A stretch of DNA of 62,264 nt from Escherichia coli (GTDB lineage: Bacteria > Pseudomonadota > Gammaproteobacteria > Enterobacterales > Enterobacteriaceae), in the NCBI RefSeq assembly GCF_003334305.1, contig NZ_QOWS01000027.1; one strand, written 5' to 3'. Below are positions 10,606 through 28,637 of this stretch, piece after piece. The notes under the pieces were generated by a model that ran no database searches, was not told the DNA's origin, and saw only the letters and a program-made list of their open reading frames with translations. The number at the start of each line of letters is the position of its first letter. The stretch's first letter is position 1. Made by a program: the position numbers and the translations under genes.

Positions 10606-10725
10606 ATACAACCGGAGTAGCCGGGCTCACTGCTATCAGCGATAGCGTTAATAATACATTCCTGAATGTTGAAGAGGGTTGGTTGCGCCCCTCAAAGTGT
10701 TTTTGTATTAAATCGGCTGCATATA

Positions 10726-13236
10726 ATGAAAAAAAATAAATCGACTTTTACCATCAATTTTATTACGTATTCATTGATGCTTTCTCTGGCAGGAGTGCCT
10801 GTCTATGCCGTCGATTTTAATACGGATGTTCTGGATGCCGCAGACAGACAGAATATTGATTTTTCCCGGTTCTCCCGGGCCGGCTATATTATGCCCGGAC
10901 AGTATCAGATGGAAATAAGGGTGAATGGTCAGGATATTTCACCATCGGCATTTCAGATTGCGTTTCTTGAACCACCTTTTTCGGATTCGGATAACGAGAA
11001 ACCGTTACCAGAACCCTGCCTGACACCGGAGATAGTCAGCCGGATGGGACTGACTGAGGCGTCACAGGAAAAAGTTACGTACTGGAATAACGGACAATGT
11101 GCGGATTTCCGACAGTTATCCGGAGTGGAGATACGCCCGAATCCGGCAGAAGGGATGCTGTACATCAATATGCCACAGGCCTGGCTGGAATATTCCGATG
11201 CCTCCTGGCTGCCGCCGTCCCGCTGGGATAACGGTATTCCCGGACTGTTGTTTGACTACAACATCAACGGGACAGTGAATAAGCCGCATCAGGGGAAACA
11301 GTCCCAGTCGCTGAACTATAACGGAACTGCGGGGGCTAACTTCGGTGCCTGGCGTCTGCGTGCGGACTATCAGGGCAACCTGAATCACACCACCGGCAGT
11401 GCGCAGGGGACGGACAGCCAGTTCACCTGGAGCCGTTTCTACATGTACCGCGCCATCCCGCGCTGGCGCGCAAATCTCACACTGGGTGAGAACTACATCA
11501 ATTCTGAGATTTTCAGCTCCTGGCGCTACACTGGTGCCAGTCTGGAAAGTGATGACCGCATGCTGCCGCCAAAACTGCGCGGTTATGCACCGCAGGTCTC
11601 AGGGATTGCGGATACGAATGCGCGTGTCGTGATTTCGCAGCAGGGACGCATACTCTATGACTCCACTGTGCCGGCAGGTCCGTTCACCATTCAGGACCTG
11701 GACAGCTCCGTGCGTGGCCGCCTGGATGTTGAAGTTATCGAGCAGGACGGGCGGAAAAAAACGTTCCAGGTGGACACGGCATATGTGCCGTATCTGACCC
11801 GTCCGGGCCAGGTTCGTTACAAGCTGGTTTCCGGTCGTTCGCGTACCTATGAGCACACCATGGAGGGTCCGGTCTTTGCTGCCGGTGAGGCATCCTGGGG
11901 TATCAGTAACACGTGGTCGCTTTATGGAGGCAGTATTGTTGCCGGGGATTATAACGCTCTGGCTGTGGGGCTGGGCCGGGACCTGAGTAAGTTCGGCACT
12001 GTTTCCGCTGACGTAACCCAGTCCGTGGCCCGTATACCGGGTTATGACACAAAACAGGGAAAATCCTGGCGTCTGAGCTATTCCAAACGTTTTGATGAAG
12101 TGAATACGGATATCACTTTTGCGGGTTACCGCTTCTCTGAACGCAATTACATGACGATGGACCAGTACCTCAATGCCCGTTACCGGAATGATTTTACGGG
12201 ACGTGAGAAGGAGCTGTACACCGTCACACTCAACAAGAACTTCGAGGACTGGAAGGCATCGGTCAATCTGCAGTACAGCCATCAGACTTACTGGGACCGC
12301 CGGACATCTGACTATTACACGCTGTCGGTGAACCGCTACTTCGATGCGTTCAGCTTTAAGAATATCGCGCTGGGGATATCTGCATCCCGTTCGAAATACC
12401 TGAACCGGGATAACGATTCGGCGTTTGTTCGTCTGTCCGTGCCGTGGGGAACCGGTACGGCCAGCTACAGCGGCAGCATGAGCAACGACCGTTACACCAA
12501 TACGGTGGGTTACAGCGACACACTGAATAACGGCCTGAGCAGTTACAGCCTGAATGCCGGCGTGAACAGTGGCGGTGGTCAGCCGTCACAACGGCAAATG
12601 AGTGCCTATTACAACCATAACGGTTCCCTGACAAATCTGTCAGCCAGTTTCTCTGCCGTGGAGAACGGATACAGCTCATTCGGGATGAGTGCATCGGGGG
12701 GGGCGACGGTCACGATGAAAGGAGCCGCGTTACATGCCGGAGGAATGAACGGAGGAACCCGTCTTCTGGTGGATACCGATGGTGTCGGAGGTGTGCCGGT
12801 TGACGGTGGTCGGGTTTATACCAACCGGTGGGGAATTGGTGTGGTGACGGATGTGAGCAGTTATTACCGCAACACCACATCAGTAGACCTGAACAAGCTG
12901 CCGGAAGATATGGAAGCCACCCGCTCGGTGGTGGAGTCGGTTCTGACGGAAGGGGCCATTGGTTATCGTGAGTTCGAAGTTCTGAAAGGTAGCCGTCTGT
13001 TTGCTGTGTTGCGGATGTCTGATAACAGCTATCCGCCCTTTGGTGCCAGCGTGACAAATGCGAAAGGCCGTGAATTGGGGATGGTGGCAGACAGCGGTCT
13101 GGCCTGGCTGAGCGGAGTGAATCCGGGAGAAACCCTGAACGTCGGCTGGGACGGCCGGACACAGTGTGTGGTGGACATCCCGGCACATCCGGACCCGGCA
13201 CAACAGTTGCTGCTGCCCTGTCGTCAGGTGAAGTGA
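10726..13236 (+). CDS. Fimbrial outer-membrane usher (PapC-like)
   Basis: ~836 aa from ATG at 10726 (track ORF starts at 10666); typical usher composition (YNxxG, repeated Gly/Ser-rich beta segments). Confidence 0.85.
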   Translation: MKKNKSTFTINFITYSLMLSLAGVPVYAVDFNTDVLDAADRQNIDFSRFSRAGYIMPGQYQMEIRVNGQDISPSAFQIAFLEPPFSDSDNEKPLPEPCLTPEIVSRMGLTEASQEKVTYWNNGQCADFRQLSGVEIRPNPAEGMLYINMPQAWLEYSDASWLPPSRWDNGIPGLLFDYNINGTVNKPHQGKQSQSLNYNGTAGANFGAWRLRADYQGNLNHTTGSAQGTDSQFTWSRFYMYRAIPRWRANLTLGENYINSEIFSSWRYTGASLESDDRMLPPKLRGYAPQVSGIADTNARVVISQQGRILYDSTVPAGPFTIQDLDSSVRGRLDVEVIEQDGRKKTFQVDTAYVPYLTRPGQVRYKLVSGRSRTYEHTMEGPVFAAGEASWGISNTWSLYGGSIVAGDYNALAVGLGRDLSKFGTVSADVTQSVARIPGYDTKQGKSWRLSYSKRFDEVNTDITFAGYRFSERNYMTMDQYLNARYRNDFTGREKELYTVTLNKNFEDWKASVNLQYSHQTYWDRRTSDYYTLSVNRYFDAFSFKNIALGISASRSKYLNRDNDSAFVRLSVPWGTGTASYSGSMSNDRYTNTVGYSDTLNNGLSSYSLNAGVNSGGGQPSQRQMSAYYNHNGSLTNLSASFSAVENGYSSFGMSASGGATVTMKGAALHAGGMNGGTRLLVDTDGVGGVPVDGGRVYTNRWGIGVVTDVSSYYRNTTSVDLNKLPEDMEATRSVVESVLTEGAIGYREFEVLKGSRLFAVLRMSDNSYPPFGASVTNAKGRELGMVADSGLAWLSGVNPGETLNVGWDGRTQCVVDIPAHPDPAQQLLLPCRQVK

Positions 13237-13304
13237 CGTTATACACGCCGGCGATCGTCTGTATATCCCGGCAGAAAAATGTAAAGAAACAGAGAGCAGA
13301 AAAT

Positions 13305-14036
13305 ATGCAGAAAATGAAACCGGCGCTGAAAAAAACGCTGATGGCGGTAGCGTGTCTGAGCGCAGTACCTGCAGCCCAGGCTGCTGTCTCCCTGGACCGC
13401 ACACGTGCGATTTTTAATGGCGATGAGAAATCGATGACACTGAATATCGCCAATGATAACAAACAGCTTCCCTATCTGGCCCAGGCATGGGTGGAGAATG
13501 AAAAGAAAGAAAAAATCACCACAGGCCCGATTATTGCCACTCCGCCAGTACAGCGTCTGGAACCCGGCTCAAAGAGTATGGTTCGTCTGACCAGTACACC
13601 TGACATCAGTCGCCTGCCACAGGACAGGGAATCCCTTTTTTACTTCAGTCTTCGGGAAATTCCCCCTAAAAGCGATAAAGCAAATGTGTTGCAGATAGCC
13701 CTGCAGACAAAAATAAAACTGTTTTATCGGCCTGAATCCATTAAAGCAAAGCCCAATGCGGTATGGCAGGATCAGTTGGTGCTGAATAAGACCAGTGGAG
13801 GGTATCGGATTGATAATCCGACACCGTATTACGTGACTGTAATTGGCATTGGCGGCAGCGAAAAGCAGGCCAGAGAAGGTGAATTTGATGCTGTGATGCT
13901 GGCACCGAAGTCAACGCAGATGGTGAAATCAGGAACATACAACACACCATACCTGAGTTACATCAATGACTACGGCGGACGTCCGGTGCTGCAGTTCTCC
14001 TGTGGTGGTAGCCGCTGTACCGCAGTGAAGAAATAA
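13305..14036 (+). CDS. Fimbrial periplasmic chaperone (PapD-like)
   Basis: 243 aa from ATG at 13305 (MQKMKPALKK signal peptide); immediately follows the usher. Confidence 0.85.
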   Translation: MQKMKPALKKTLMAVACLSAVPAAQAAVSLDRTRAIFNGDEKSMTLNIANDNKQLPYLAQAWVENEKKEKITTGPIIATPPVQRLEPGSKSMVRLTSTPDISRLPQDRESLFYFSLREIPPKSDKANVLQIALQTKIKLFYRPESIKAKPNAVWQDQLVLNKTSGGYRIDNPTPYYVTVIGIGGSEKQAREGEFDAVMLAPKSTQMVKSGTYNTPYLSYINDYGGRPVLQFSCGGSRCTAVKK

Positions 14037-14063
14037 GAAAGCAGGAAAAAGAATTGTCCGGAG

Positions 14064-14636
14064 GTGTCGGAGATGAACAGGGCAACGATAGGATTTTATC
14101 TGGCAGTTGTGCTGGGGAGTTGCAGTATGAACGGTGTCTCACAGGCGGATGAATTGTTGACGCGGGATGATTTTTTCGTAGCAGATGAAAGCCGTCATCA
14201 GTGGGTCACTGAGCACAATGGGCGGACAGGAGCTCTGAACGTCAAAGGTGCATTAGTGTCATCTCCGTGCATACTGGATACGCCAGAAGTTAACTTCCCC
14301 CTGCAGAAAGATAAAGGGAGATATGTACTCAATCTTAAGGTATCACGTTGTGGTGATGGGCATTCTGACATACCGGAACGCCAGTCAACAGAGCATGGGA
14401 ATATTGTTGTGAAGCAAAGCGCTGTGTTGAAAACAGGCAAAGATCAAATTCTGCTATCCGCATGGCGAAACGGTGGATTAAGTAGAAAGAATTTACAACA
14501 TGGTGATAATCAGATCACTTATTATATAAATGAAGCTCAATATCAAAAGATAGCTAAAACACAAATGCCTGTTACTGCGCATAAAACATCTGACAGTAAC
14601 AGGGGGGTAATGCATTTGAATATAATGTATGAATAG
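14064..14636 (+). CDS. Fimbrial assembly/minor protein (PapJ-like position)
   Basis: 190 aa with signal peptide; position after the chaperone as in pap/pix operons. Confidence 0.4.
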   Translation: MSEMNRATIGFYLAVVLGSCSMNGVSQADELLTRDDFFVADESRHQWVTEHNGRTGALNVKGALVSSPCILDTPEVNFPLQKDKGRYVLNLKVSRCGDGHSDIPERQSTEHGNIVVKQSAVLKTGKDQILLSAWRNGGLSRKNLQHGDNQITYYINEAQYQKIAKTQMPVTAHKTSDSNRGVMHLNIMYE

Positions 14637-14719
14637 GCACAGTACGCTGGCATCATTATTATCTCGTTGTGTCTTAATAACCATCTTGTTACCTCCTTGT
14701 TTTATATCAGGAGAAAGAT

Positions 14720-15238
14720 TTGAGAATAACAGTCTTTTTATTAACGTTCCTTTCCTTTTTATCTGATTTATGGGCAGTTGATATTCCAATCAACATCACG
14801 GGAACGATTATAATTCCGCCATGCCAGATAAATAACAGTAATCCTGTTGATGTTGATTTTGGTAATATCAGGGTGAGTGAACTTGACACAAAGGAACATA
14901 TCAAAGTAGTTAGTTTCCCGGTTTATTGTCCATATCATCAGGGCGAGGCATATGTAAAGATGACTGGACAGAGTATGACCGGGAAAGATAATGTTCTGGC
15001 GACAAATATTGATGGACTTGGAATTGAACTTTATCAGGGGGGGGAGGGAACTGGAAACCATCTTATCTTAGGTAGTGACTCATCCGGGTATGGATACGAA
15101 GTTATTAATGCGCTCTCTGAAAAAAATGTTGAGAGGACGACGTTCACGTTTACAGCAAAAATATATAAGGCTGAAGGTGTTACAATTAATAGCGGGGAGT
15201 TTAGTGCCAGTGCACTTATAAACATAGTTTATTTGTGA
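14720..15238 (+). CDS. Minor fimbrial subunit (adaptor pilin, PapF/PapK-like)
   Basis: 172 aa pilin-like; signal peptide, Cys pair, C-terminal strand ALINIVYL. Confidence 0.6.
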   Translation: MRITVFLLTFLSFLSDLWAVDIPINITGTIIIPPCQINNSNPVDVDFGNIRVSELDTKEHIKVVSFPVYCPYHQGEAYVKMTGQSMTGKDNVLATNIDGLGIELYQGGEGTGNHLILGSDSSGYGYEVINALSEKNVERTTFTFTAKIYKAEGVTINSGEFSASALINIVYL

Positions 15239-15260
15239 GTTTAGTTTTTAGAGATTACAT

Positions 15261-16253
15261 ATGAAATATGTCAAAAAAATATTGGGAATATCTTTCTTTT
15301 CTTTACTCCCATTATCTGCAGAAGCCGAAAGCTACTGTAACCTCCTTTGGGCGAATAATACTCTACCAAGTGCCTCAGTCAATGTCAGTTTTGATGGCAA
15401 TACATCCGGGATTTTTCCTCTCAATTTACAGGCGGGGGGCTTGTCAACTGTAATAAAAAGAGCTGCAAAAAATATGGATACTTTTGTAACGCTTGATGGA
15501 ACTTATCGATACTGGATACAGTATCCGGAAGCATGGCAGACAACCCCTGACGGACTAAAATATCGAATAACCAGCGAACTGGAGGTTTCGGGCACTCAAA
15601 CTGCAGGTGTCAAAACAGTTGTAACGCCTGTAGGTTACCATACATGGGTAAATACATACGGATGCAGGGATGTCGGGGGAACTTATGATTTTGGGGTTGC
15701 ATCTGTCAGTGGGGTGAATATTGAAATAGACAGGGGCACTGCATGGCCGGGGGTTTATTCTATACAGTTACCAGTAAAAGTTGCATATGAAGAGAATAAA
15801 GGGAATTATGACGGTAAAAATGGCGGAGGCTGGCAAGAATTTCCTGTATCCATGAAATCTTTTTCTCCGGTAGACTCTAAAGGCATCAGCATAACGATAA
15901 GCTCAAAGTGTAATGTTGGTGAACAAAGTTTGAGTGTTAATATGGGGGATAATATTACTCCGGATGAAGCAAAATCAGGTGTGGAGAAAAAGGTTAATTT
16001 TTCTCTTACTTGTAATGCCCCGGCAAAGGTATCACTATCTCTTAAAGGTACCGATATCGTCGATGGGGTCAATAACAAAACAAAATGTGGTTCTGGTAGC
16101 TGCTCTCTGAATTTTGATAATGATAGTTCATCTAAAATTCTGGAAGTAAATCAAGGAACATATCAGGTGCCGATTACAGTACGTTTTCAGGACGCAAACC
16201 CCGTTGCCGGAGGGTTTGATGGTAGTGCTGTATTATCCGTTGATATTCTATAA
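15261..16253 (+). CDS. Putative fimbrial tip adhesin (two-domain, PapG/PixG-like)
   Basis: 330 aa with signal peptide; size and last-structural-gene position typical of a tip adhesin; C-terminal pilin-like domain. Confidence 0.5.
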   Translation: MKYVKKILGISFFSLLPLSAEAESYCNLLWANNTLPSASVNVSFDGNTSGIFPLNLQAGGLSTVIKRAAKNMDTFVTLDGTYRYWIQYPEAWQTTPDGLKYRITSELEVSGTQTAGVKTVVTPVGYHTWVNTYGCRDVGGTYDFGVASVSGVNIEIDRGTAWPGVYSIQLPVKVAYEENKGNYDGKNGGGWQEFPVSMKSFSPVDSKGISITISSKCNVGEQSLSVNMGDNITPDEAKSGVEKKVNFSLTCNAPAKVSLSLKGTDIVDGVNNKTKCGSGSCSLNFDNDSSSKILEVNQGTYQVPITVRFQDANPVAGGFDGSAVLSVDIL

Positions 16254-16305
16254 TATATATTGATGTAGTCTTGCTGATTAACAAATAAATAAAGGAGTAC
16301 TTCAA

Positions 16306-17088
16306 GTGTTTAATGATATCAGAGGTGACGTCACATCGGGTTCTGATAGTTTATTGCAGGCAATACAGAAACGAGAATTCAAACCATACATTCAGCCTAT
16401 TGTTTGTGCCAGCAACCATAAAATTATTGGTGGCGAGTTGCTTGTCCGTTGGCATACATCTCATAGAGGAGTAATTTATCCAGATAGTTTTATAGATAAT
16501 ATGGAGAAAGCTGGGATTCTGTCTGAGCTTACTTGTTCTATAATCAATGAGGTGGTTGTTAATTTTGATGGTGAGAATAAATTTAATGGTGAGGATTTTA
16601 TTCTTCACGTAAATGTCGCTCCATCTCTATTGCATAATAAAAAATTCATATCCACCTGTATAAACGCTGCAAAAAAAAACAACCTGTCATTAGTTCTTGA
16701 ATTAACTGAACAGTATTTTTTTACTGTGGATAGCAAAACCATATCCACCTTTCATTGTCTAAAGGAGTCGGGTGTGCAATTTGCTTTAGATGATTTTGGG
16801 ACGGGGTATTCAAACTTATTTTATCTAAAATATTTTACAGTGGATTTTATAAAAGTAGATAAGATGTTTACCCAGGATTTAGAAGGTTGTAAACAGTCTC
16901 GTTACATTATAGAAGCAATTCTTGAATTATCCAGGAAGTTAAATATAAAAACTATCGTGGAAGGAGTTGAAACCATGGAGTTAGTAAATAAATTAATGTT
17001 GCTGGGGGTTGATTATTTTCAAGGTTATTACTTTGGTCAGGCTATTGAGCTATGTTCGTTTATTAGAGAATATAGAAAGACTGTATAG
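16306..17088 (+). CDS. EAL-domain protein (putative c-di-GMP phosphodiesterase), fimbria-associated (SfaY/PapY-like)
   Basis: 260 aa; EAL signature residues present (ELLVRW, NVAP, ELTE, DDFGTGYS, KVD, EGVE, QGYYFG); GTG start preceded by AAGGAG. Confidence 0.8.
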   Translation: MFNDIRGDVTSGSDSLLQAIQKREFKPYIQPIVCASNHKIIGGELLVRWHTSHRGVIYPDSFIDNMEKAGILSELTCSIINEVVVNFDGENKFNGEDFILHVNVAPSLLHNKKFISTCINAAKKNNLSLVLELTEQYFFTVDSKTISTFHCLKESGVQFALDDFGTGYSNLFYLKYFTVDFIKVDKMFTQDLEGCKQSRYIIEAILELSRKLNIKTIVEGVETMELVNKLMLLGVDYFQGYYFGQAIELCSFIREYRKTV

Positions 17089-17152
17089 TGATCTTGTTTG
17101 CTAATCTGTGTAAGTGACTTTTCTTAAAAATGCTCGAGTACACATTCCCGTT

Positions 17153-17851
17153 TTAGTTCCATGCATTTTTTGAGATCCCGGCCAAATAATGGTGCTGACG
17201 ATATTCCTCTGGCATCATATTGTTTAGTGATTCATACGGGCGTTCACAGTTATATTCTGACACCCATCTTTCAGTGATTTCCCGCACTTCATTCAGTGTT
17301 CTGAACAGATAAAAATCGAGTATTTCTGTACGGTATGTCCTGTTAAAACGCTCGATGAAAGCGTTCTGCGTCGGCTTACCCGGCTGGATAAACTCCAGTT
17401 TTACTGCATGTTTCTCTGCCCATTCAGCCAGTGCCAGTGAGATAAATTCCGGACCATTATCCATACGTAGCATGACCGGATAGCCACGGTTTGACGCGAT
17501 CCTGTTGAGTACACGAACCACTCGCAGAGCTGGCAGATTCAGATCGATTTCAATCGACAACGCCTCACGGTTAAAGTCATCAACGACATTAAACGTGCGA
17601 AAACGACGGCCACAGACTAGGGCATCATGCATAAAATCGACAGACCAGCTCTGGTTCAGCGCTTCCGGCGTGGCCAGTGGCGAGGGATTACGCACCAGCA
17701 ACCGCTGTTTGCCCTTACGGCGAAAGTTCAGCTTCAGCAGACAATAAATACGATGGATCCTTTTGTGATTCCACGGGTATCCCTGCCGCCGCAAAACCTG
17801 GAAAAGTTTCGGAAAACCGTATCGTGGGTATCGCTCTGCCACTGCCTGCAA
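17153..17851 (-). CDS. IS3-family transposase OrfB (DDE integrase core), expressed by -1 frameshift from orfA
   Basis: DDE-region motifs (NGPEF, QNAFIERFNRTYRTE, ERPYESL); true coding region extends upstream to the slippery site near 18004. Confidence 0.8.
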   Translation of the reverse strand: MQAVAERYPRYGFPKLFQVLRRQGYPWNHKRIHRIYCLLKLNFRRKGKQRLLVRNPSPLATPEALNQSWSVDFMHDALVCGRRFRTFNVVDDFNREALSIEIDLNLPALRVVRVLNRIASNRGYPVMLRMDNGPEFISLALAEWAEKHAVKLEFIQPGKPTQNAFIERFNRTYRTEILDFYLFRTLNEVREITERWVSEYNCERPYESLNNMMPEEYRQHHYLAGISKNAWN

Positions 17852-17984
17852 AGCGACAATAACGAGTTCGTCAGGCGTGGTATCCGGGCGGTAATGGTAA
17901 ACCGTTCTGCTCAGGTTCAGACTCCGGCAGGCCTGACGGATACTGAGTCCGAACGTCGTTATCAGATGAGTAACCAGCTCACGC

Positions 17985-18263
17985 TTAAAGGCTAGTTTTA
18001 AAGCTTTTTTCGATAACGTCTTTCAGCGCCCTGTTCTCAAGACTCAGGTCGGCAAACATCTGTTTGAGACGTGGGTTCTCGTCCTCAAGATCCTTGATCT
18101 TTTTAATATCAGAAGCCTCCATGCCACCGTATCTGGACTTCCAGTTGTAGTAGGTGGCTTCAGAAATACCGGCCTCCCGGCAGACATCTTTAACGGTTCG
18201 TCCGGCTTCAACTGACTTAATCACAGCGATGATCTGATGCTCAGTAAAACGGGCTTTACGCAT
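17985..18263 (-). CDS. IS3-family transposase OrfA (HTH)
   Basis: 92 aa, MRKARFTEHQIIAVIKSVEAGRTVKDVCREAGISEATYYNWKSRYGG; strong SD GAAGGAG upstream. Confidence 0.85.
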   Translation of the reverse strand: MRKARFTEHQIIAVIKSVEAGRTVKDVCREAGISEATYYNWKSRYGGMEASDIKKIKDLEDENPRLKQMFADLSLENRALKDVIEKSFKTSL

Positions 18264-18474
18264 AGCGATCTCCTTCGTTAGCAGATTGATTATGCCGGAT
18301 GATCTCTAAATATGAATGGCACGATTATGCGGGATACTTACACCCCCGGGCCACCATTTCTCGCCATATCCGGCTGGTATTATAATTACCTCTTTCTCGT
18401 TGTGTAAAAGCCAGCTCAAGGACTGAAAGCCTTAAAATACATGCTATTAACAAATATTAAAAGAGAATAACCTT

Positions 18475-18502
18475 GAGTGCCCTATAGGACTTTAGGGCAC
18501 TC
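18475..18502 (-). terminator. Putative terminator hairpin downstream of the large helicase gene
   Basis: Perfect inverted repeat gagtgcccta...tagggcactc just 3' of the stop at 18513; weak T-tract. Confidence 0.4.
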
Positions 18503-18512
18503 AATACTGCTA

Positions 18513-21500
18513 TCAGCGCAACAATTTTCTAATATTTTGATGCGCTTGTGGCAGATTTGAACGAAGAAGATATTCATTAAAGGCTATATGAGCATTAGTA
18601 TTCTTTGACTTATATACGTCGTGTTGAAAGTCGGGTCGATCAATAAGACCAGGGTAACTTCCCACTGCAACAGAACGGTCATTCAAACTCACAATCATAG
18701 GTGCCTCCTGAGTTCCCTTAATTAGGCATTGAAAACCATCCAATTCCAGACTTGCCCTCAATTGAGACAATTTTTCTACCTGAATATCAGGTGAAGCACA
18801 ACGAGGAACCATTCCGTATAGAGCATAACGAAGTAAAGATGCACCTAGTTTCCTATCGAGACGGCTTTGTATATGCTGGTTGTGGAAATGATTGAGACAA
18901 TCTGTACAGGAGGTATCGCACTCACAACCTTCTAACAATGCGAGTGTTGCAGTAAGAATGTCATCTAGATTCGCTGCTGCTACTTCCGCATAACCCGCAC
19001 CGCCAGATAAAGTATCATAAAGGAAGAGATCCAATGCCTGAGTATCTTCCTCTATAGTGGGTAAAATTCTGAAACCAGAGCCAAACTCAGCAGGATCAAG
19101 ATCCAGTTGTTTATGGCGACTAGCTGCAAGCCTTAGTGCTTCCGCTATTGTATATAATGCATCTTCATACATCCGTAAAACGATAGCATTTGAAGTATCA
19201 GTTACAAGCGGAGACCCAACGGTTATTCGTAATAAAAGCAAATCAGTACGGAAATCATGTCCGAGAAAAACGCGTTTATACTCGCCAGAGCATAAGCGAG
19301 GCGTTTCCTTAGTTGCTATATATTTATACGGTCTTTCATGTGCCCCCTTTGCCGGTGAGTAGGAATCATAAACGGAGGCCGCACCACATTCGCAACATAC
19401 TGAAAAACCACTGGACCCCCCCTCATTTTTCCCTCGGTTCACCGTCACCAGTTTCTGATCTATTGCGTGAGTAAAAACAATATGAGCACCTCCATTATTG
19501 AACTTAAAATCTTCAGGATCAACAGGTTGTGGATATTGTGCCGCAGTTACATAGGTGATTTCTTGCTCTCTGTCGTCCTCATTAAGTTCCTTGGCATTTT
19601 CAGGTCCAAAGACTTCGGGCTGAATCATTATTTCTACTTTTAGAATGCCACCACAGATCGGACAAGTATTTTCGCTATTCTGATTATTATGAGGATCGCG
19701 GACAAAAGAGCACTTATCGCAATGAATAAACTTTTTGGGATTATTGAAAAGCTTTCTTGCCCGGTTTAGTTCGCCTTTCAATGCATTAGAAAAAACACCA
19801 CCAGAGCGATAGGTTTTCCTATCAATAACAATCAAACGTCCCGGGGCATATTCACTCAGAGCCTGAGAAATTGATTGCTGAGGCTGTTGTACTGTTCGCA
19901 CCTCAAAAGAACCTCTAATATTCTTTACAATTTTTTCTACCAAGAAACTACAGAGGCTTGTAGGAAATGCATAACTTGGTAATAAACCATGGTAAAACAG
20001 GAACTCAAGTAATTCTTCTTGTGCAAATTTCATTCCACCAGAAGTCTGCTCATCATCTTCATTTTCCTCATCAACAAGAACGGCAATTTGTGGAACAATT
20101 TCAGCCAGCCCATGGAGTGTATTTAAAAATTCCTCTGCTACCTTAGCAAACCAGTCACTGGCAGAAAGCCCTCCAGTTTCAAGAACAGGAGGAAGCCATG
20201 CTGCAACACTTGTTCTCAAATCACCATTAGTAGATAGAATACGGTTTTTAACCCAATTATTAAAGCTATCGAGATTTAGGCCAGTATCTTTTGCTCCATG
20301 AAAAAAATCTCGTGTAGTACCAAGTGCTTTCTCAAGTATGGCAGTTTTCTCTGTGGGATTATAAATTCCTTGTTCCATTAACTCGTGAAAAAAGGTCTGA
20401 ACTAAAAAAGAATGAACGTGTCTTCTGGCTATTTTGGGATTATTTACTTTCACTTCAGGTGTACGAGGAGAACCTGCAACAATGCGTTCAGGATTAAGGA
20501 AATAATAACTATCATGAGGGCCATTTTGAGAATATGTAACCACCGTTGAAACAGATGCGCCACGGCGGCCTGCTCGCCCAGCACGTTGCTGATAATTTTC
20601 TCGTTGCGGAGGGACGTTTCTTAAAGCAACAGCAACCAGAGATCCAATATCAACCCCCACTTCCATCGTCGTCGTACAACTAAGTACATCAATGGGCTTG
20701 TCGTTATCATTAATAAGAACATCTTGGAATCTCAGTTCGTAGAGTTCTGTAGTGGCATGAACGCTGGCCCTATCTCTATGTGAGAGTTGAGCAGTATGCT
20801 CTTCAACGCTAAGGTTTAGAAGCCGCGAATTTGAAACCAAAACTTCTTCTACCGGCGAACGCCAGAATCCTTTTCGTGCATTAATATAGCTGCTTTCCGA
20901 CGGCTCGACTGTTTTGACACTGTTACTACCACAAGCAAGGCAAGTAGAATGTTCTAAAGCAAATGGCATTAGTGCCGTGCAGTCATTACATTGTTTCCAG
21001 ACATGCAAGAGATCTATTTTCAGACGTAGTGCATTTGGAGCAAGAAAGTAGACACCATCTTTTCCTAATGTCAGATGAGTACGAAAAATCTCCTCCAAAA
21101 CTTCCACATAAAGCTCCCCCATAGCAGGATGCTGTATCAGGGTTTTCCTAAGAGCTTTTCCAAACCGTCCTTGACTACCCCAAGTGGGTTTGTAGAATCC
21201 AGCGGCTTTGATTCGTAGTGTCGAATCAATAGATTCATCAAAAGCAAATTCAGTGAGTAAGGTATCAATCCAAGCAACAGCTAAAGCATGAACATCCTTG
21301 CTCTCAATATTGAGCTTCTTGGACTGCACATCTTCCCACATTTTTTTTGATTTAAGCTGCGATGGTTCAACAAAACCAACTGTTGTTCCGGAAAGAGAAT
21401 AGTAATTGCTACATAAAAGTTTAAGCAACGCTATTTTATATCGTGACGGTGACTCTTGGGGACTGAAGTTATCATCAAAAGCTTGAGCCAGATCGCTATT

Positions 21501-24023
21501 ATAATCACGATAAAATTCATCACGGGCCATTACAACTTTTCGTGAATCTTCCCCATCAAAAATAAGCAAGTCATGTTCAGAAAGGACTGATAGGAAAGCA
21601 AGGTAAAGTACTGATGTTGGTTTGGGTTCCCGATTGATATCTTTCAGTTTAGAACAGGCGAGAGCAATGGATTGCCGAAACAAATCAAGCTCAATATCTC
21701 TAGGAATATCACGTGCAAGCCGAGCTGCTTTTTGTCGGCCATCAGAAAAAATAAGTACTTTTTTTCCCCCATTGGGATGTTTACCATCAATAGGACGACT
21801 CGCTGGCTGGTGAGATATCTGTGTACGTACTAACGTTGTAAAAGGTGCTTCCCCTTTTGTAACATGATCCATAATTTTAGACGGTTCATTCTGAGCACTT
21901 CTTGTCTTACGCATACAAACAGGGCATTCATCAAATGTAATTTCAGATCCAGACTTAACTCGGTCAGGTATAAAGACTTTACGATAACCAGAATCCTCAT
22001 CTTGACACTGTTTAGAAAGGCGTCCTGTTGCTATATGTAGCCATCTGTCCTGGTAATCACTATGTACATGAGGTGTTTCCTCGACCAATATATCTATGGG
22101 AACAAGATCGATATCCTCATCTTCTGATAATGGTCCGTTCGGCTGGTGCCATACAAAGTCCATTTCGGAACTAACGTATCCACGAATAAAAGCCGCACCG
22201 CAGTCACGGTGGGTAAATAATTCGTAGACTCGCCCTTTTGAAGCGCATTTACATTGATCCAGTGGTTTCGTATAAAGGCGGCCAAGTATAGTTGGCCCAC
22301 TATGGTTACCCAAACGTTGATTACAATCGGGATCTATACAGGCATAAAGACCTGGTAATCCCCGATAAAAAAGATGCATGCGAGTTGGAATAAGCACTCT
22401 GCCATCGGATGCCCTCTGAGCATAGCAACCCAATGCGAGTAATGCATCTGTCGCTCGCTCTGCAATTTGCTGTGGAGAGTCTGGAAAAAGGTTTTCACTC
22501 AAGATATTTAGCTTAACCGCTTTACCTGAAACTATTTCAATAAGCGTTTCAATAGGACCAAAACCAGTCAAATTATCAAATAACCAATTACGTAGTGTAC
22601 TATGATCTTTTATCATCGGCTTTTGCCAGCCCATTCGTTCGGCAAGAGACTCTATTGCTGCATATGCAGATTCAAGATCCTCAGCTACGCACTGAAATGA
22701 ATTTAGGTCGAATTCAGCCAGTGCATTAGCTTCTTTACTGGTAACAATTTGTGACTCAGGACGCGATTCCCTTGTACCCTCAATAATTCGAAATTTCCTC
22801 GAAGAGGTTGGTGATAAGCCAGTTAAGTCTTGGGCAAAACGTTCTCCATCCTCAATGGACCCTAGACTAGCACTGGTAAGGATGCAGCGCATACGTTCCC
22901 GGGGAATATCCAACCGAGCACAGAGGCGACGTATTAAAAGGGCTACCTCTGCTCCCCCTGCTCCTCTATACATATGCGCTTCATCAAGCACTAAGATAAG
23001 CTCATTCATCTCATCAGCTTTGAGCCATTCCTTAGTCTGCTCAAAAATATTACGCTCGATAGGTCGCATCAGCATATACTCAAGCATGGAGTAGTTCGTT
23101 ATCAGTAATTCTGGACAGCGATTCTGCATTTCATGCCGGGTCATTAGCTCACGATCCTCAGGCTGGGTAATTAGCCTCTCCCCCCAATTGTTCAAAACAA
23201 ATTGCTTACCCGTTTTTTTGCCTGAGACGTAGGTTTTAGCCTGAGATGCGCTTTGCCCATAAAAAGCATCAAGATCTTTACTTGGCCAGCGACCAATGCG
23301 GTTCAGTTCCGCACGTACGGGGGCGTTATTTGCGAGTTTATTGTAAAACTCATCGAAAAGGGGTTTGATAAAAAGCTCGTCTCGTCTAGAGCTACGACGA
23401 CCAGGGTAAGGCGTTCTTCCCGTATAAGCGCCAAAGCGTACAGGGGCACATCTTCCAGATCTCAGTATTTTAGAGGCTTCAGAATCACCAAAAAGACGTC
23501 TGATACGAGCAAGTTGATCGTTAACTAATGCATTCATTGGATATAATAAAATTGCTCTACAACCTGGAAGGGATGCAGATTTAGGTCTCTCGGAAGATTC
23601 AATCGCCAATTTACCAATAATTGGCATTAGAAAGCTTTCAGTCTTACCGGAGCCTGTACCTGTTGCAATGACCAGATCAGAAGCGTCTTCGCCAAGAAAT
23701 GACTCAAGTGCCTGTGATTGGTGTTTATAGGGGCGTTGATAGAGGCCAATTCCAAGTTCTGATAGTTGAGTTAGCACATTACTTGCTGCTTCGGGAATAG
23801 GCAATTCACTGTATGGCGCACCAGGTTCATAAATTGGGGTTGCTTCTATATAAGGAGCTTGAGCAATAGTTTCATTTTGCTGTAAAAGCGCTCGTCGCTC
23901 AGCAATTAACCCTTCATCCCGGATATGATATTGTGCCTCAATGTATTTTCTCAGATTCTCACTAAGGCTTTTCACGGTATCATGTATACCTGAACGTTCA
24001 GTTACTTTATTTTTATTAATCAT
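18513..24023 (-). CDS. druE: Giant SF2 DEAH-box helicase with Cys-rich C-terminal region; DruE-like (Druantia type I)
   Basis: 1836 aa; Walker A ATGTGSGKT (nt ~23643-23666), DEAH box ILVLDEAHM (~22971-22997), motif VI QRAGRAGRRG (~20559-20591), C-terminal Cys clusters (CDKCSF...CPICGG, CCECGAA, CECDTSCTDC) consistent with a DUF1998-like zinc-binding module. Confidence 0.8.
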   Translation of the reverse strand: MINKNKVTERSGIHDTVKSLSENLRKYIEAQYHIRDEGLIAERRALLQQNETIAQAPYIEATPIYEPGAPYSELPIPEAASNVLTQLSELGIGLYQRPYKHQSQALESFLGEDASDLVIATGTGSGKTESFLMPIIGKLAIESSERPKSASLPGCRAILLYPMNALVNDQLARIRRLFGDSEASKILRSGRCAPVRFGAYTGRTPYPGRRSSRRDELFIKPLFDEFYNKLANNAPVRAELNRIGRWPSKDLDAFYGQSASQAKTYVSGKKTGKQFVLNNWGERLITQPEDRELMTRHEMQNRCPELLITNYSMLEYMLMRPIERNIFEQTKEWLKADEMNELILVLDEAHMYRGAGGAEVALLIRRLCARLDIPRERMRCILTSASLGSIEDGERFAQDLTGLSPTSSRKFRIIEGTRESRPESQIVTSKEANALAEFDLNSFQCVAEDLESAYAAIESLAERMGWQKPMIKDHSTLRNWLFDNLTGFGPIETLIEIVSGKAVKLNILSENLFPDSPQQIAERATDALLALGCYAQRASDGRVLIPTRMHLFYRGLPGLYACIDPDCNQRLGNHSGPTILGRLYTKPLDQCKCASKGRVYELFTHRDCGAAFIRGYVSSEMDFVWHQPNGPLSEDEDIDLVPIDILVEETPHVHSDYQDRWLHIATGRLSKQCQDEDSGYRKVFIPDRVKSGSEITFDECPVCMRKTRSAQNEPSKIMDHVTKGEAPFTTLVRTQISHQPASRPIDGKHPNGGKKVLIFSDGRQKAARLARDIPRDIELDLFRQSIALACSKLKDINREPKPTSVLYLAFLSVLSEHDLLIFDGEDSRKVVMARDEFYRDYNSDLAQAFDDNFSPQESPSRYKIALLKLLCSNYYSLSGTTVGFVEPSQLKSKKMWEDVQSKKLNIESKDVHALAVAWIDTLLTEFAFDESIDSTLRIKAAGFYKPTWGSQGRFGKALRKTLIQHPAMGELYVEVLEEIFRTHLTLGKDGVYFLAPNALRLKIDLLHVWKQCNDCTALMPFALEHSTCLACGSNSVKTVEPSESSYINARKGFWRSPVEEVLVSNSRLLNLSVEEHTAQLSHRDRASVHATTELYELRFQDVLINDNDKPIDVLSCTTTMEVGVDIGSLVAVALRNVPPQRENYQQRAGRAGRRGASVSTVVTYSQNGPHDSYYFLNPERIVAGSPRTPEVKVNNPKIARRHVHSFLVQTFFHELMEQGIYNPTEKTAILEKALGTTRDFFHGAKDTGLNLDSFNNWVKNRILSTNGDLRTSVAAWLPPVLETGGLSASDWFAKVAEEFLNTLHGLAEIVPQIAVLVDEENEDDEQTSGGMKFAQEELLEFLFYHGLLPSYAFPTSLCSFLVEKIVKNIRGSFEVRTVQQPQQSISQALSEYAPGRLIVIDRKTYRSGGVFSNALKGELNRARKLFNNPKKFIHCDKCSFVRDPHNNQNSENTCPICGGILKVEIMIQPEVFGPENAKELNEDDREQEITYVTAAQYPQPVDPEDFKFNNGGAHIVFTHAIDQKLVTVNRGKNEGGSSGFSVCCECGAASVYDSYSPAKGAHERPYKYIATKETPRLCSGEYKRVFLGHDFRTDLLLLRITVGSPLVTDTSNAIVLRMYEDALYTIAEALRLAASRHKQLDLDPAEFGSGFRILPTIEEDTQALDLFLYDTLSGGAGYAEVAAANLDDILTATLALLEGCECDTSCTDCLNHFHNQHIQSRLDRKLGASLLRYALYGMVPRCASPDIQVEKLSQLRASLELDGFQCLIKGTQEAPMIVSLNDRSVAVGSYPGLIDRPDFQHDVYKSKNTNAHIAFNEYLLRSNLPQAHQNIRKLLR

Positions 24024-25063
24024 ATTTCATTCCGTCGCGTGAATTCGTTAATCCAAATAATACCAAGCCCTTCAAAAGCGCTACGCACTATGGGTAATAT
24101 TTCCTCGGGGAATACATGGTGTGTTATTCCTGAATGTTCATTTTCAAAACCTGATTCTCTCCAGCCTAGCAGGAGTACCTTCGTTTCTCGTCTTGGTAAT
24201 CTTCTGGTTAATCTTAATCTTGCTAGCCCATTAGATATTTTGATACGGATCTTTAGCGGACAATTATCTTTTGTATCGAGAAAAAAACGTAATCTTCTGA
24301 CATCATCAGACGATTCTAACGAATTCATTCTACATAAGCGTCCAGCTTCAATTTCTCCTAAATAATAGGAAAAGTGATTATCAACGGACATTCTGCATAA
24401 GTAGATTTGCTTTTTATTAAAAGAAAGTTCTGACAAATGGAGCCATTTTCCCCGCACATATGCAGTCGTTTCACTCATATTGCTAGGCGCATCGATAAAG
24501 CCGGAAATAGTTCCAGATAGTAGTCTGGATGACCATTCTTCATTGCCTTCTGCTGGGGCACCAATCCACTCATTTGCATCCCAGATTTCAACACTTCCAG
24601 TACACACTTTTTCTTCAACCAAGCGAACTCTTCCAGCAGATTTAGCTACCACGCCCGTTGAAAATGTACAGGAAGGCTCTCCACCAAAAAAAACAGCCAT
24701 CTTATTGTCAATTCGTACTGCATGTGGGGGAGCTGTGAGCCAATTACCACCTTCTAACTTAATCATGTCACCCAATTCAGCCAAGCTGTTCAATATAGAC
24801 ATAATGCCCGGATGTATAGCATTATCAATATCAGCAATGTCTGGCCATAAAGGTACCAATTTTCGCCTTACTGCACTAGTGAGTCGAAGCGAGGTTACAG
24901 TTTGCCTAGCTTCTTCTGTTTCAGATATAGAATATTGATATAATACGCTCCTTAAGCATTCTGAAACTGCTGAAATTCTTAACCCTTCATCATCAAATCG
25001 ACAATTTAATGCAGTTGATAACATATCCAGTGCTTTGTCTCGTGATACTGCTCTCCACTCCAT
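24020..25063 (-). CDS. druD: DruD-like protein (Druantia type I component, unknown function)
   Basis: ~347 aa from ATG at 25063 with SD GAGGAGG (track ORF extends to 25078); stop overlaps the druE start (ATGA). Confidence 0.6.
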   Translation of the reverse strand: MEWRAVSRDKALDMLSTALNCRFDDEGLRISAVSECLRSVLYQYSISETEEARQTVTSLRLTSAVRRKLVPLWPDIADIDNAIHPGIMSILNSLAELGDMIKLEGGNWLTAPPHAVRIDNKMAVFFGGEPSCTFSTGVVAKSAGRVRLVEEKVCTGSVEIWDANEWIGAPAEGNEEWSSRLLSGTISGFIDAPSNMSETTAYVRGKWLHLSELSFNKKQIYLCRMSVDNHFSYYLGEIEAGRLCRMNSLESSDDVRRLRFFLDTKDNCPLKIRIKISNGLARLRLTRRLPRRETKVLLLGWRESGFENEHSGITHHVFPEEILPIVRSAFEGLGIIWINEFTRRNEI

Positions 25064-25074
25064 TAACCACCTCC

Positions 25075-26958
25075 TCAAGAAGATATTTTTGCACTATAAT
25101 TTTTTAATTCACGATTGGCAATATCTTCTATCTTTTGGACGGGGCCACCTTTAATTTTTGCCCATGTAAGAGTATAAAAAGACAAGACAGAATAAAGATC
25201 ATAAATATAATTTCCATTAGGGACTCTTATGAGTGAAGTATAGAAAATATGAACCATTCTCTTCCACAAAGTTCCCCCATCAAATCCAGCTTCGTCCAGT
25301 AATGCTCTTAATTCATCTACATAATCATCAACACTATCAAGCTGTAGTCCATCAATATTTGTCCATTTATCCTTGGCAAGACAACCTGGTTTCAATTGGG
25401 GTAAAATAGCAGATAAACCACGCATTTTTAATGTATCAGTATCAATAACTGGTCCCAACTCGGCCAACATTCCTCCATCAGGGAATGTAGCAGGGCCTTG
25501 TTTCCAAGTAGCTATCAATGCCAGATGGTCATAATTTGTTGGATGTATTTGCCGTTGAACAACTATATCTCTAATTGCCGCTCCATAAATCTCAAATGCT
25601 GAAAGATTGGCCCCTTTCAAAAGGAGACAGCGAGATGATTCAGCTATAGTCTCTATAAAATCAAAAGAATCCATGTCAGAAATAATACCAACTGGAACTC
25701 TCCATATGTGATAACGTGGTGCACCAATAGCAATGGCAATTGCATCCGCGATAATATCTGCCAAAGAGCCACTGAATTGAATGATTTGTCCAGAAACGAA
25801 GGTAGCTAATGTCAATCTAGCCAATGTTTCTGCTGAATTTTTTGTTAACCCAACAGCCTGTAAATTTAAAGAAATTCTATTAGATATGTCTTCGGAGGAT
25901 GAAAGATATTCATAATTTTCATAGTGCGCTATTTCATGGAATTTTGTAAATCTATTGGTGACACTCACTTTGCTAGCTTGAGATGTGTTTATTTCCAGTG
26001 TATCTATTCGTTCAGTGAGTTTTTTTAATTCATTGATATAATCTAACTCGTTGTTCTTTCTTTTATTATCACACAAGATAGTTAATGCATTTTTTAACTC
26101 TGAAATTTCATTAGCCATACTTTTTATCAATTTTTCATGCTCAGAAATGTCATTCATAGCCAGAGCATTAAAATCTAATTTCTCTTGAAGAGATAATATT
26201 AGCTGTTTGTTTTTTTCATTAAAATGATAAAGCTCGTCAATAGATTTATTAGCAATATCAGATTGTTTAGTCTCTGAGTTTATTAAGGATTGTAGTTCGT
26301 TAATTATTTTTAAATTGCTCTTTTCATTATTAAAGTAATTATCAAACCGTTCGGAAAAAGCATCTATTTTTAACTCAAGCTCTTTAATATGGTTATTTTT
26401 TTTCTCCACATTATCGGCAATTAAACTAATACGTGCTTCAAGCTCATCTAAACGAATTGGAAGAGTATCAACCACGATATCGCGGGCAAGAACAACTGCA
26501 GGAGGAAAAAGGTTAAATGCATTTATAACGTCTGGATCATTAGCAAACCCACTAAAGATAAACAGGCGCTCGATATTCTCTCTAGCAACTTTAGGAAAGT
26601 TTTTAGCAAGCTCTCTAATAAAAATAGAGCCAGAGTTTTCTTTTAATCCTAAATTATTAATCATACTAAATGATTTGTCAATTTTCTCTTCAGCCCAAAA
26701 CTGCCAAAAAAGAGAAAAACTTTTCCATGCTTTTCTCTCCTCAGAGGAAGGATGTGACTGGAACATATACCCAATCAATCTTTTCTGTTTTTCTTTAATT
26801 TCAGTGGGATGTCCTGCCCTGAATCCCGGTACTTTTGGTAAACAACCAAAAGCTTTACGTCGTAAAGTTGGAGAAATCTCATTGATAAAGTTAACAATTT
26901 CGGATTGTCCCAACTTAGAGATCCGTTCCTTTGCCTCTTGGCTATATTGGTAACTCAT
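25075..26958 (-). CDS. druC: DruC-like protein (Druantia type I component) with predicted coiled-coil region
   Basis: 627 aa; K/E/L-rich heptad-like central segment; ATG start at 26958. Confidence 0.6.
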   Translation of the reverse strand: MSYQYSQEAKERISKLGQSEIVNFINEISPTLRRKAFGCLPKVPGFRAGHPTEIKEKQKRLIGYMFQSHPSSEERKAWKSFSLFWQFWAEEKIDKSFSMINNLGLKENSGSIFIRELAKNFPKVARENIERLFIFSGFANDPDVINAFNLFPPAVVLARDIVVDTLPIRLDELEARISLIADNVEKKNNHIKELELKIDAFSERFDNYFNNEKSNLKIINELQSLINSETKQSDIANKSIDELYHFNEKNKQLILSLQEKLDFNALAMNDISEHEKLIKSMANEISELKNALTILCDNKRKNNELDYINELKKLTERIDTLEINTSQASKVSVTNRFTKFHEIAHYENYEYLSSSEDISNRISLNLQAVGLTKNSAETLARLTLATFVSGQIIQFSGSLADIIADAIAIAIGAPRYHIWRVPVGIISDMDSFDFIETIAESSRCLLLKGANLSAFEIYGAAIRDIVVQRQIHPTNYDHLALIATWKQGPATFPDGGMLAELGPVIDTDTLKMRGLSAILPQLKPGCLAKDKWTNIDGLQLDSVDDYVDELRALLDEAGFDGGTLWKRMVHIFYTSLIRVPNGNYIYDLYSVLSFYTLTWAKIKGGPVQKIEDIANRELKNYSAKISS

Positions 26959-26969
26959 TCGAAGGCACC

Positions 26970-28616
26970 TTATCTAAAGCGATTACATTCAAATCCATTG
27001 GTCTTAACTTCTTTTACCAATGCTCTATAATGCGGTAATAAGTGTGGTTCCGGCTGCAAATCCACTAATTTCTCAACTAATAAAAAATCATTATTTAAAC
27101 TAAAACCATGGAGGGTGTGCCCCATTTGAAGTATAAAACTTAATATCCGTGAGCGAAGATTAGGAGATAATTCAATAAATTCCCCGTCATCTAATGATAA
27201 CATAGAAGAACTAGGTAAAAATATTTTACCAAGACCTAAAAAATCTATTTCTACATGACATGTTAAGTTTGCTAAGCAATCAGATAATTGAGATAACGCA
27301 ACAGGAGATAGTAACCGCATGCTCTTATCATGAGCTGCAATGTCATCATTAGAAACTAACTTAATAACACTACTTTCAGTTTGTCTTTGAATTCTTGCCA
27401 CTCCTTCAACACCAGAAGGCATAGACATGTATTCTAATTTATGGCCAAACATTCGTGCTTCCATCATAACTTCAATGCATCTTCTTTGATGTAAGGAAAC
27501 GATGGTCTTTTCTTTATTCCTCTTAGTAAAAACCAAATCTATTGAGGGATATTTTCTGGGTACAGAAACGTTTTTTTTATAGAAAGAAAAAAATAAGTTT
27601 ACGTCCTGCTCAATTGAGCCAGAAACGCCCACAAAGTCATTTTCTCCAGGATTAAGAATGAAGAAAGCAGGTGATTTTTCAACACCAATCGCTGAAAGTA
27701 ATAAAGAGGAACCTTGTGCGTACATAGTTGGTCCAACATTTTCTGATGATGTTGGTGCCATATTTGCTGACAACAATATTGTGTCAGAATGAACACATTC
27801 GACATGATTAATACTTGTTTTTTGATTTAGGAACGGCCAAATTGCTGTAATAGATGTTCTGGCAGGAACAACAGGAAGGTATGTAAAAGATTTTAGCCAT
27901 GAAATACTCTCCACAGAAGGGACTTCAGGAATTGTAACAAGAGCTAAATTCCATCCCTGTTTACTAGCTAAACTTTTTATTTCTAATTCATCAGGAAAAT
28001 CTGGAGCAACAGGGTGTCGCCAAAGAAAGGCAAATGTTTCAGTACATCTTAACTCTTGTGCTCGTGGAAATCCCTTCGATGCCCCACGCCCTAAAGCAGT
28101 GAAAACTGCTGCTCCCTCAGAAGGTAAACCGGGGCATTCTCTTTCAACTTCTGTTACAAATTTTGGATCGGGTTCACCACTATATGAAACAATACGGTAA
28201 GATTTTACTGATAATTCAGCACCAATCTGGCGACTCTTTACCATACTCCTCATATCAAGCGTTTGGCTTCTGCCTCCTACATCTAACGTTATCTTTGCTC
28301 TACATAAATTACAGGTTGGCAACACTAATTCTAATGACCACTCTCGACTATTACTTCCGACAGGAATCAATAAGCGCAAATCCATATATCGCTTTGAAAT
28401 AGTTTTAATAGTTTCGATAATGATGGAATTTCCGGGAACAAAATTTTCACAGTCTGACGTACCATGTCCGGGCAAATGAGCAAAATATGGGGGTATAACC
28501 TTCCCTTTACGGAGGTTAACACCTTTTTTACAAACTGGGCAAACATATTGAGCATATTTCGTTGCTCGAGCTGCTAATATCAGTGTCCCGGTGAACTTAT
28601 CAATAGCGTAATTCAC
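26970..28616 (-). CDS. druB: DruB-like protein (Druantia type I component)
   Basis: 548 aa; apparent GTG start with SD GGGGGAG; N-terminal CPVCKK...HLPGHGTSDC zinc-ribbon-like motif. Confidence 0.6.
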   Translation of the reverse strand: MNYAIDKFTGTLILAARATKYAQYVCPVCKKGVNLRKGKVIPPYFAHLPGHGTSDCENFVPGNSIIIETIKTISKRYMDLRLLIPVGSNSREWSLELVLPTCNLCRAKITLDVGGRSQTLDMRSMVKSRQIGAELSVKSYRIVSYSGEPDPKFVTEVERECPGLPSEGAAVFTALGRGASKGFPRAQELRCTETFAFLWRHPVAPDFPDELEIKSLASKQGWNLALVTIPEVPSVESISWLKSFTYLPVVPARTSITAIWPFLNQKTSINHVECVHSDTILLSANMAPTSSENVGPTMYAQGSSLLLSAIGVEKSPAFFILNPGENDFVGVSGSIEQDVNLFFSFYKKNVSVPRKYPSIDLVFTKRNKEKTIVSLHQRRCIEVMMEARMFGHKLEYMSMPSGVEGVARIQRQTESSVIKLVSNDDIAAHDKSMRLLSPVALSQLSDCLANLTCHVEIDFLGLGKIFLPSSSMLSLDDGEFIELSPNLRSRILSFILQMGHTLHGFSLNNDFLLVEKLVDLQPEPHLLPHYRALVKEVKTNGFECNRFR

Positions 28617-28637
28617 TTACTCCCCCTTCAGTTAAGA

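Follow-up and report, generated by a model that had tools for sequence, protein, structure and literature searches.

How does a helicase of 1836 residues, whose motifs lie hundreds of residues apart and which carries several cysteine clusters, build its motor, and what might the regions between and behind these motifs do? This question is raised by the final gene of a Druantia operon in a stretch of Escherichia coli DNA of 62,264 nucleotides (contig NZ_QOWS01000027.1, RefSeq assembly GCF_003334305.1; hereafter the window). An earlier sequence-only reading described the gene product as a DruE-like helicase with a single insertion of roughly 700 amino acids (aa) between its two RecA-like lobes and with CxxC-type clusters in its C-terminal ~700 aa, and proposed both regions as candidate effector or sensor modules. 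Based on the analysis reported here, we conclude that the protein is very probably a giant DNA helicase of the YprA/MrfA family within superfamily 2 (SF2), belonging to a type I Druantia system, with three inserts in its motor, a canopy, a degenerate Vsr-like tail and six structural zinc sites.

The gene is a minus-strand open reading frame (ORF) at positions 18513–24023 (5511 nt, ATG start). "DruE-like" turned out to be an understatement, because the product is DruE itself: it matches the PADLOC model DruE1 (PDLC00013) over its full length (E = 0, 2468.5 bits; residues 9–1835 on model positions 3–1774 of 1776), the second-best model being DruE2 with 638 bits and the DruE3 models matching only in part. 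RefSeq lists the protein as "DruE" at 100% identity (WP_021548590.1) and already names the gene druE. It closes a complete type I operon, druABCDE, in which druD, druC, druB and druA are co-directional with druE and immediately upstream, each matching its own PADLOC model with E values from 7e-178 to 0. For DruE, NCBIfam produced helicase matches below threshold only; for DruA–D it produced none.

The SF2 motifs I (GTGSGKT, residues 122–128), II (DEAH, 347–350), III (TSAS, 383–386), V (TTTMEVGVDIG, 1117–1127) and VI (QRAGRAGRRG, 1146–1155) are intact on two RecA-like lobes, as in the YprA/MrfA family. In an alignment of 102 type I sequences (the query and 101 representatives, 27–51% identity over residues 400–1100), motif I is near-invariant (101 of 102), and D347, E348, H350 and motifs V and VI are invariant. 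The positions of motifs I (~122) and II (~345) in the sequence-only reading hold, but those of motifs V and VI ("around 1050–1100") were some 50–70 residues too low, since these motifs begin at 1117 and 1146. The underlying observation that the motifs are far apart and not contiguous is sound: motifs II and V are separated by 767 residues, compared to ~170 in MrfA, and motifs I and II by 225 residues, compared to ~110.

This spacing does not reflect one insertion of ~700 aa. The motor is interrupted by three accessory modules: ~115 aa in RecA1, ~330 aa between the lobes and ~280 aa inside RecA2. The first of these, also absent from the earlier description, emerged from the Pfam DEAD match, which comes in two pieces (residues 100–180 on model positions 2–71, and 295–388 on positions 88–161), so that RecA1 carries an insert of ~115 aa. 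The first half of RecA1 with motif I spans residues 95–180 (window positions 23484–23741; all DruE domains are on the minus strand), and the second half with motifs II and III spans residues 296–415 (22779–23138). For RecA2, the Pfam Helicase_C match on the intact protein is limited to residues 1102–1155 and to the second half of the model (positions 56–110, 30.7 bits). A near-invariant GxKxLxFSDxRQ segment is located far upstream at residues 752–764 (motif IV-like, GGKKVLIFSDGRQ), with G753, K755, F759, D761 and R763 invariant; in the AlphaFold2 (AF2) model this segment forms a strand (755–759) followed by a long helix (763–795). When we joined residues 740–786 to residues 1065–1200 in silico, thereby removing 278 residues (787–1064), the Helicase_C match grew to model positions 14–110 and its score rose to 38.6 bits. 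Because this excision both lengthens and strengthens the match, RecA2 is itself interrupted: the lobe starts near residue 746 with its first strand and helix (746–786; 21666–21788), pauses for ~280 aa, and resumes with the part that contains motifs V and VI (1066–1190; 20454–20828), which aligns to MrfA residues 352–444. The supposed single insertion is therefore two, an inter-lobe module (~416–745) and an intra-RecA2 module (~787–1065).

The AF2 models were built from 43-sequence alignments as two separate segments and without zinc. The model of residues 1–1200 has a mean predicted local distance difference test score (pLDDT) of 88.6 and a predicted template modelling score of 0.87; the C-terminal model has a pLDDT of 87.0. 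According to these models the motor comprises ~370 residues, or ~20% of the protein, and its lobes would still pack as a normal SF2 ATPase core. Since the model is confident, the split of the core is likely confined to the primary sequence.

The insertion in RecA1 (residues 181–295; 23139–23483) consists of helices and a hairpin, and corresponds to the "HTH insertion" (helix-turn-helix) described for type I DruE (PMC12458937). The inter-lobe module is modelled as a helical domain (429–534) followed by a beta-rich double-zinc domain (547–720). The all-helical part (416–545; 22389–22778), referred to as BrxA-like, winged-helix (WH) or five-helix domain (PMC12458937; 10.64898/2026.05.12.722862), is predicted with a pLDDT of ~90 and is weakly conserved, with 3% of its positions at 85% or above. 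The beta-rich part (546–745; 21789–22388) contains predicted strands between residues 547 and 686 and two predicted zinc sites. The intra-RecA2 module is modelled as a second helical domain (804–984) and a zinc ribbon (985–1039). Its helical part (787–984; 21072–21665), the region known in the literature as MarR-like, Cap, duplex-binding or Stalk, evolves fast: between residues 801 and 1000 the sole position conserved at 85% or above is Y807. The remainder (985–1065; 20829–21071) holds the predicted ribbon with short strands (985–1039) and the return helices; comparison of residues 960–1110 with PDB sequences gave nothing meaningful (best E = 0.44). Used alone as a query, the inserted region retrieves 1348 cluster representatives with E ≤ 0.001, in which it occupies the same position in proteins of ~1800 aa. 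This homology identifies the insertion as a family trait.

The cysteine clusters are similarly unlikely to be accidental. DruE contains 12 C-x(1–4)-C motifs (2.8 expected) and seven CxxC motifs (0.72 expected), and none of 20,000 shuffled sequences reached either value. Among 118 type I sequences with 51–100% identity, 24 of the 37 cysteines are invariant, compared to 20% of all columns, and the clustered cysteines are invariant without exception (22/22). The same 22 residues are 98–100% conserved in the more divergent set of 102 sequences. Among the 15 non-clustered cysteines in that set, C1116 (beside motif V) reaches 83% and C871 43%, while the other 13 stay below 40%. The objection that the cysteines might not be conserved in homologs therefore fails. 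All strings that the sequence-only reading had listed are present (CLACGS at 1028, CDKCSF at 1435, CPICGG at 1454, CCECGAA at 1543 and CECDTSCTDC at 1700). However, CLACGS does not belong to the C-terminal ~700 aa; it precedes motif V and is paired with a CNDC motif at 1012–1015 that had been missed, as had a cluster of seven cysteines at positions 562, 567, 591, 593, 608, 700 and 703.

Judged by sequence, these 22 cysteines together with histidines are predicted to form six zinc sites. Two would reside in the beta-rich inter-lobe domain (C562, C567, C591 and C593; H605, C608, C700 and C703), one in the ribbon within RecA2 (C1012, C1015, C1028 and C1031; cysteines 99–100% conserved), two in the OB/connector region (C1435, C1438, C1454 and C1457; C1543, C1546, H1562 and C1578; cysteines 99–100% conserved in both) and a further one within the MZB domain (C1700, C1702, C1706 and C1709; 98–100% conserved). 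Since position 605 is occupied by a potential metal ligand in 102 of 102 sequences (54 His, 24 Cys, 22 Asp, 2 Glu), H605 is suggested as the fourth ligand with C608, C700 and C703. A histidine is found at either position 1562 or position 1580, never at both, in 100 of 102 sequences, a pattern that reads as a ligand swap which would complete the site of C1543, C1546 and C1578. In the papers that we consulted, we found no description of zinc-ligand turnover at 605 and 1562/1580. The zinc sites are probably structural staples that shape small beta-rich modules, and some of them probably line the DNA path.

The C-terminal third of DruE is a helical/OB/connector/MZB canopy like that of MrfA and DrmB, followed by a degenerate Vsr-like domain. 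The AF2 model of this part matches the folds of MrfA and DrmB, including the OB-fold and connector of the canopy. RecA2 is followed by an extended winged-helix-like helical domain (1191–1345; 19989–20453) with predicted helices between 1196 and 1307 and an acidic disordered loop at ~1317–1329 (pLDDT <50 at residues 128–140 of the C-terminal model). The OB-fold/connector region (1346–1640; 19104–19988) accommodates two inserted predicted zinc sites. The MZB/DUF1998 domain with its predicted four-cysteine site (1641–1740; 18804–19103) aligns to MrfA residues 638–730 and is recognized by Pfam MZB (PF09369, E = 4e-11 at residues ~1640–1710). We infer that the Vsr-like fold matches belong to the small alpha/beta domain at ~1741–1836 (18516–18803), which has a Vsr / PD-(D/E)xK-like fold and is predicted to be catalytically dead. 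At the opposite end of the protein, residues 1–94 (23742–24023) comprise two predicted helices (13–31 and 37–48) and a strand (58–61) in a conserved PYIEATP sequence, in which P57, E60 and Y65 are conserved. This strand is a candidate for the NTR strand of YprA-family helicases, a concept taken from PMC12458937.

This architecture agrees with the published one. In the type I DruE modelled by Bell et al. 2025 (PMC12458937), an NTR precedes RecA1, which contains an HTH insert; then come the BrxA-like helical domain, a beta-barrel that binds zinc (ZBM) and, inserted in RecA2, a MarR-like domain together with another zinc module. A helical extension, the OB-CON-DUF1998 region carrying two zinc inserts and a Vsr domain that has been inactivated complete the plan. 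The protein is the known type I DruE and follows this domain plan; nothing of substance differs. What the present analysis adds are boundaries at residue level, the test for the split of RecA2, and the probable fourth ligands (H605; H1562/1580). The split core and the zinc clusters are thus real, non-random and a trait of the family, but they are already published and annotated.

Four preprints from May 2026 report cryo-electron microscopy (cryo-EM) structures of type III DruE. The type I family profile matches the corresponding PDB chains (9tu7, E = 9e-187; 9wae, E = 6e-166), and we compared DruE to both series (9tu7, 2108 aa; 9wae, 1970 aa). Type III DruE likewise combines an SF2 core with accessory domains beside and inside RecA2, where domains named "INS" and "Stalk" are embedded (10.64898/2026.05.13.724313), and shares the helical domain, an OB domain bearing two zinc motifs, and the MZB domain. 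Residues 546–745 correspond to the "dZBD" or "ZBM_L", which has two zinc ions, and the cysteines equivalent to 562, 567, 591, 593, 608, 700 and 703 align in the double-zinc domain of 9tu7. Double-zinc, duplex-binding and dimerization domains have been described for type III DruE, together with five zinc motifs, two of them in contact with DNA (10.64898/2026.05.13.724758). Several features differ: six zinc motifs are predicted here compared to the five reported in type III-A, the ~115-aa insert in RecA1 is missing from type III-A according to the 9tu7 alignment, the dimerization subdomain of type III is reported to be absent from other types (10.64898/2026.05.12.722862), the tail is a degenerate Vsr-like fold of ~96 aa instead of two PLD-like domains, and the partners are DruA–D instead of DruH. 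Pfam detected no PLD family in DruE.

MrfA/YprA from Bacillus subtilis (PDB 6ZNP/6ZNQ/6ZNS) shares RecA1, RecA2, the OB-CON-MZB canopy and the four-cysteine zinc site, and is matched by sequence profile in four colinear stretches. MrfA is, however, a repair helicase of 751 aa that lacks the three core insertions and the nuclease-like tail and contains one zinc site instead of six. DrmA/DrmB of DISARM (PDB 7S9V/7S9W) is also a YprA-family helicase from a defence system, but here motor and canopy occur on separate polypeptides, and the inserted domains and partner genes differ from those of DruE. A newer Pfam release assigns DruE to the family YjiV_N (PF27116); YjiV is a helicase-like gene of E. 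coli K-12 beside mcrBC, which ties DruE to ARMADA/DISARM-like cassettes.

By analogy with type III DruE and MrfA, DruE would act as an ATP-driven translocase/helicase that moves 3'-to-5' on single-stranded DNA. The strand would pass through a tunnel with the RecA lobes as its floor and the canopy as its roof. In type III DruE, 3'–5' unwinding requires the MZB domain (10.64898/2026.05.13.724758), and the enzyme forms a topologically closed ring that is activated by 3'-overhang DNA (10.64898/2026.05.12.722862). The domains inserted in this enzyme bind to duplex DNA, keep the channel locked or gated, and bring about dimerization (10.64898/2026.05.13.724758; 10.64898/2026.05.12.722862). In the type I protein, those inserted beside RecA2 may similarly bind the duplex in front of the motor and serve as a gate for the channel or its loading. 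The "sensor" half of the earlier proposal is therefore reasonable in the form of DNA-sensing accessory domains, because the equivalent inserts of type III behave in this way, but "effector" finds no support for the type I protein. Self/non-self discrimination and killing would presumably fall to DruA–D, since no active nuclease is evident in type I DruE and since one preprint reports a type I-dependent N6-methyladenine (m6A) mark on host DNA and phage escape via a phage methylation factor (10.1101/2024.04.14.589459). The solved structures of type III contain no counterpart in sequence to the module at ~787–1065. One may speculate that this module, with its fast-evolving helices and invariant ribbon, is a sensing or docking surface that couples DruE to DruA–D or reads the DNA modification state reported in type I, which would set the five-gene system apart from DruH–DruE; we regard this as a long shot.

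Several points weigh against this interpretation of DruE. What is said of polarity, substrates and insert function is carried over from type III proteins of only partial sequence similarity, and the literature searched yielded no experiment performed on type I DruE. Residues ~790–1078, including the ribbon C1012–C1031, have no detectable counterpart in 9tu7. All five representatives that were classified by type are DruE1, so that cysteine conservation is demonstrated within type I only, and its extension across types is based on two PDB alignments and on the literature. The grouping of seven cysteines (562–703) into two sites is our assignment, ligand geometry and the contact between NTR and RecA2 are deduced from segments modelled separately and without zinc, and domain boundaries derived from DSSP strings and conservation are accurate to about ±10 aa.

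Three other explanations deserve consideration. The inserted or C-terminal regions could constitute an effector, such as a nuclease that would destroy the DNA of phages; two groups report the C-terminal PLD domains of type III DruE as an active nuclease (10.64898/2026.05.13.724313; PMC13192584). Two other studies found these PLD domains dispensable for defence (10.64898/2026.05.12.722862; 10.64898/2026.05.13.724758), and the type I tail is of a different kind. P1825 is the only position between residues 1736 and 1836 that reaches 85% conservation among the 102 type I sequences, and since none of the conserved acidic residues, lysine or histidine expected of an active Vsr or PD-(D/E)xK enzyme is left in this stretch, the domain at 1741–1836 has kept no catalytic residues. 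Bell et al. likewise describe the Vsr domain of type I as inactive (PMC12458937), and Pfam and PADLOC detected no catalytic domain within residues 400–1100. We therefore rejected an active C-terminal nuclease, and an effector role of either region is improbable.

The cysteine clusters could also bind iron-sulfur (Fe-S) clusters or serve as redox or disulfide sensors instead of structural zinc sites. Four-cysteine Fe-S clusters do occur in some DNA helicases and nucleases, such as XPD, DinG and AddB. Yet the CxxC...CxxC spacing at 1012–1031 and 1435–1457 is that of zinc ribbons or knuckles, and both the exchange of His, Cys, Asp and Glu at position 605 and the relocating histidine at 1562/1580 are what zinc sites typically show. 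In MrfA, the MZB cluster is a crystallographic zinc site (Pfam name "MrfA Zn-binding domain"), and the homologous clusters of type III DruE were modelled as zinc in cryo-EM structures (10.64898/2026.05.13.724758). Fe-S ligation was rejected on these grounds and appears very improbable. Finally, a long ORF with low GC content relative to its flanks and located between insertion sequence (IS) elements (IS3 downstream of druE, ISEc18 upstream of the operon) could be a fusion, an assembly artefact or a decaying pseudogene with "insertions" of unrelated sequence. This explanation deserves practically no credence, as it is refuted by the intact 5511-nt ORF and its identical genomic copies, by full-length homologs and by homologs of the inserted region. 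Among 5426 complete E. coli genomes, 69 contain DNA at least 99% identical to druE, which in 63 covers no less than 80% of its length, and the ten top matches are all 100% identical. In addition, there are 117 full-length homologs with 51–88% identity from many genera, and the inserted region recurs at the same position in hundreds of proteins of ~1800 aa. A large helicase of the YprA/MrfA family with predicted zinc staples remains the preferred description of DruE.

The partner genes of DruE are arranged compactly on the same strand: druD at 24020–25078 (DruD1, E = 7e-178; named druD in RefSeq), overlapping the start of druE with its stop by 4 nt, druC at 25075–26958 (DruC1, E = 0), druB at 26970–28616 (DruB1, E = 3e-270) and druA at 28638–29870 (DruA1, E = 5e-218; Pfam PF14236). 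DruB also contains a CoiA_N match (PF25164), and the YVCPVC...FAH...C motif in its N-terminus (residues ~24–56) is probably a further zinc finger, related to the competence protein CoiA; it is a possible lead to the partner that handles nucleic acids for DruE in type I.

The operon has a GC content of 34–44%, lower than the core genome (~50–53%), and is located on a tRNA-Phe island with a P4-type integrase and the two IS elements. The mobile island extends from position 17481 to 34559, with the integrase at ~32976–34238 and tRNA-Phe at ~34436–34511. In strain Ecol_224 the same block of ~17 kb (IS3 remnant, druE–A, ISEc18, pseudogene, integrase, tRNA-Phe) occupies another tRNA-Phe locus, where it adjoins dicD/dsbD and different cargo (a CbtA/YeeU toxin-antitoxin pair and antirestriction genes). 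A phosphoethanolamine-transferase gene adjoins the IS481-like ISEc18 transposase (~31440–32700 and 30229–31200, both on the plus strand); it is annotated with a frameshift and an internal stop in the identical RefSeq records and represents decayed island cargo. Across bases 1–47,341, the window shows 100% identity to E. coli strain A7. This includes the cargo beyond IS3 (1–17100), namely a chaperone-usher fimbrial operon (usher at 10666–13236, plus strand), an IS21 remnant, and the locus pgtP/pgtCBA for phosphoglycerate transport. An EAL-domain gene downstream of the IS3 element (16306–17088, plus strand) is intact here (260 aa) and broken into two ORFs (120 + 128 or 104 + 128 aa) in two other contigs (L003 and L004), both of which encode an identical DruE.

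The value of these results lies mainly in correct annotation: an intact type I Druantia system is present in the window on a mobile island at tRNA-Phe, and such systems are reported to be among the most potent phage defences of E. coli. Strong protection is reported for type I Druantia whose E. coli genes are more than 98% similar to the cloned reference (10.1101/2024.04.14.589459); a literature search for UMEA 4076-1, the strain behind the original type I system, returned no match. The residue-level map of three core insertions, six predicted zinc sites with their probable ligands, and a dead nuclease tail provides a guide for mutagenesis and construct design.

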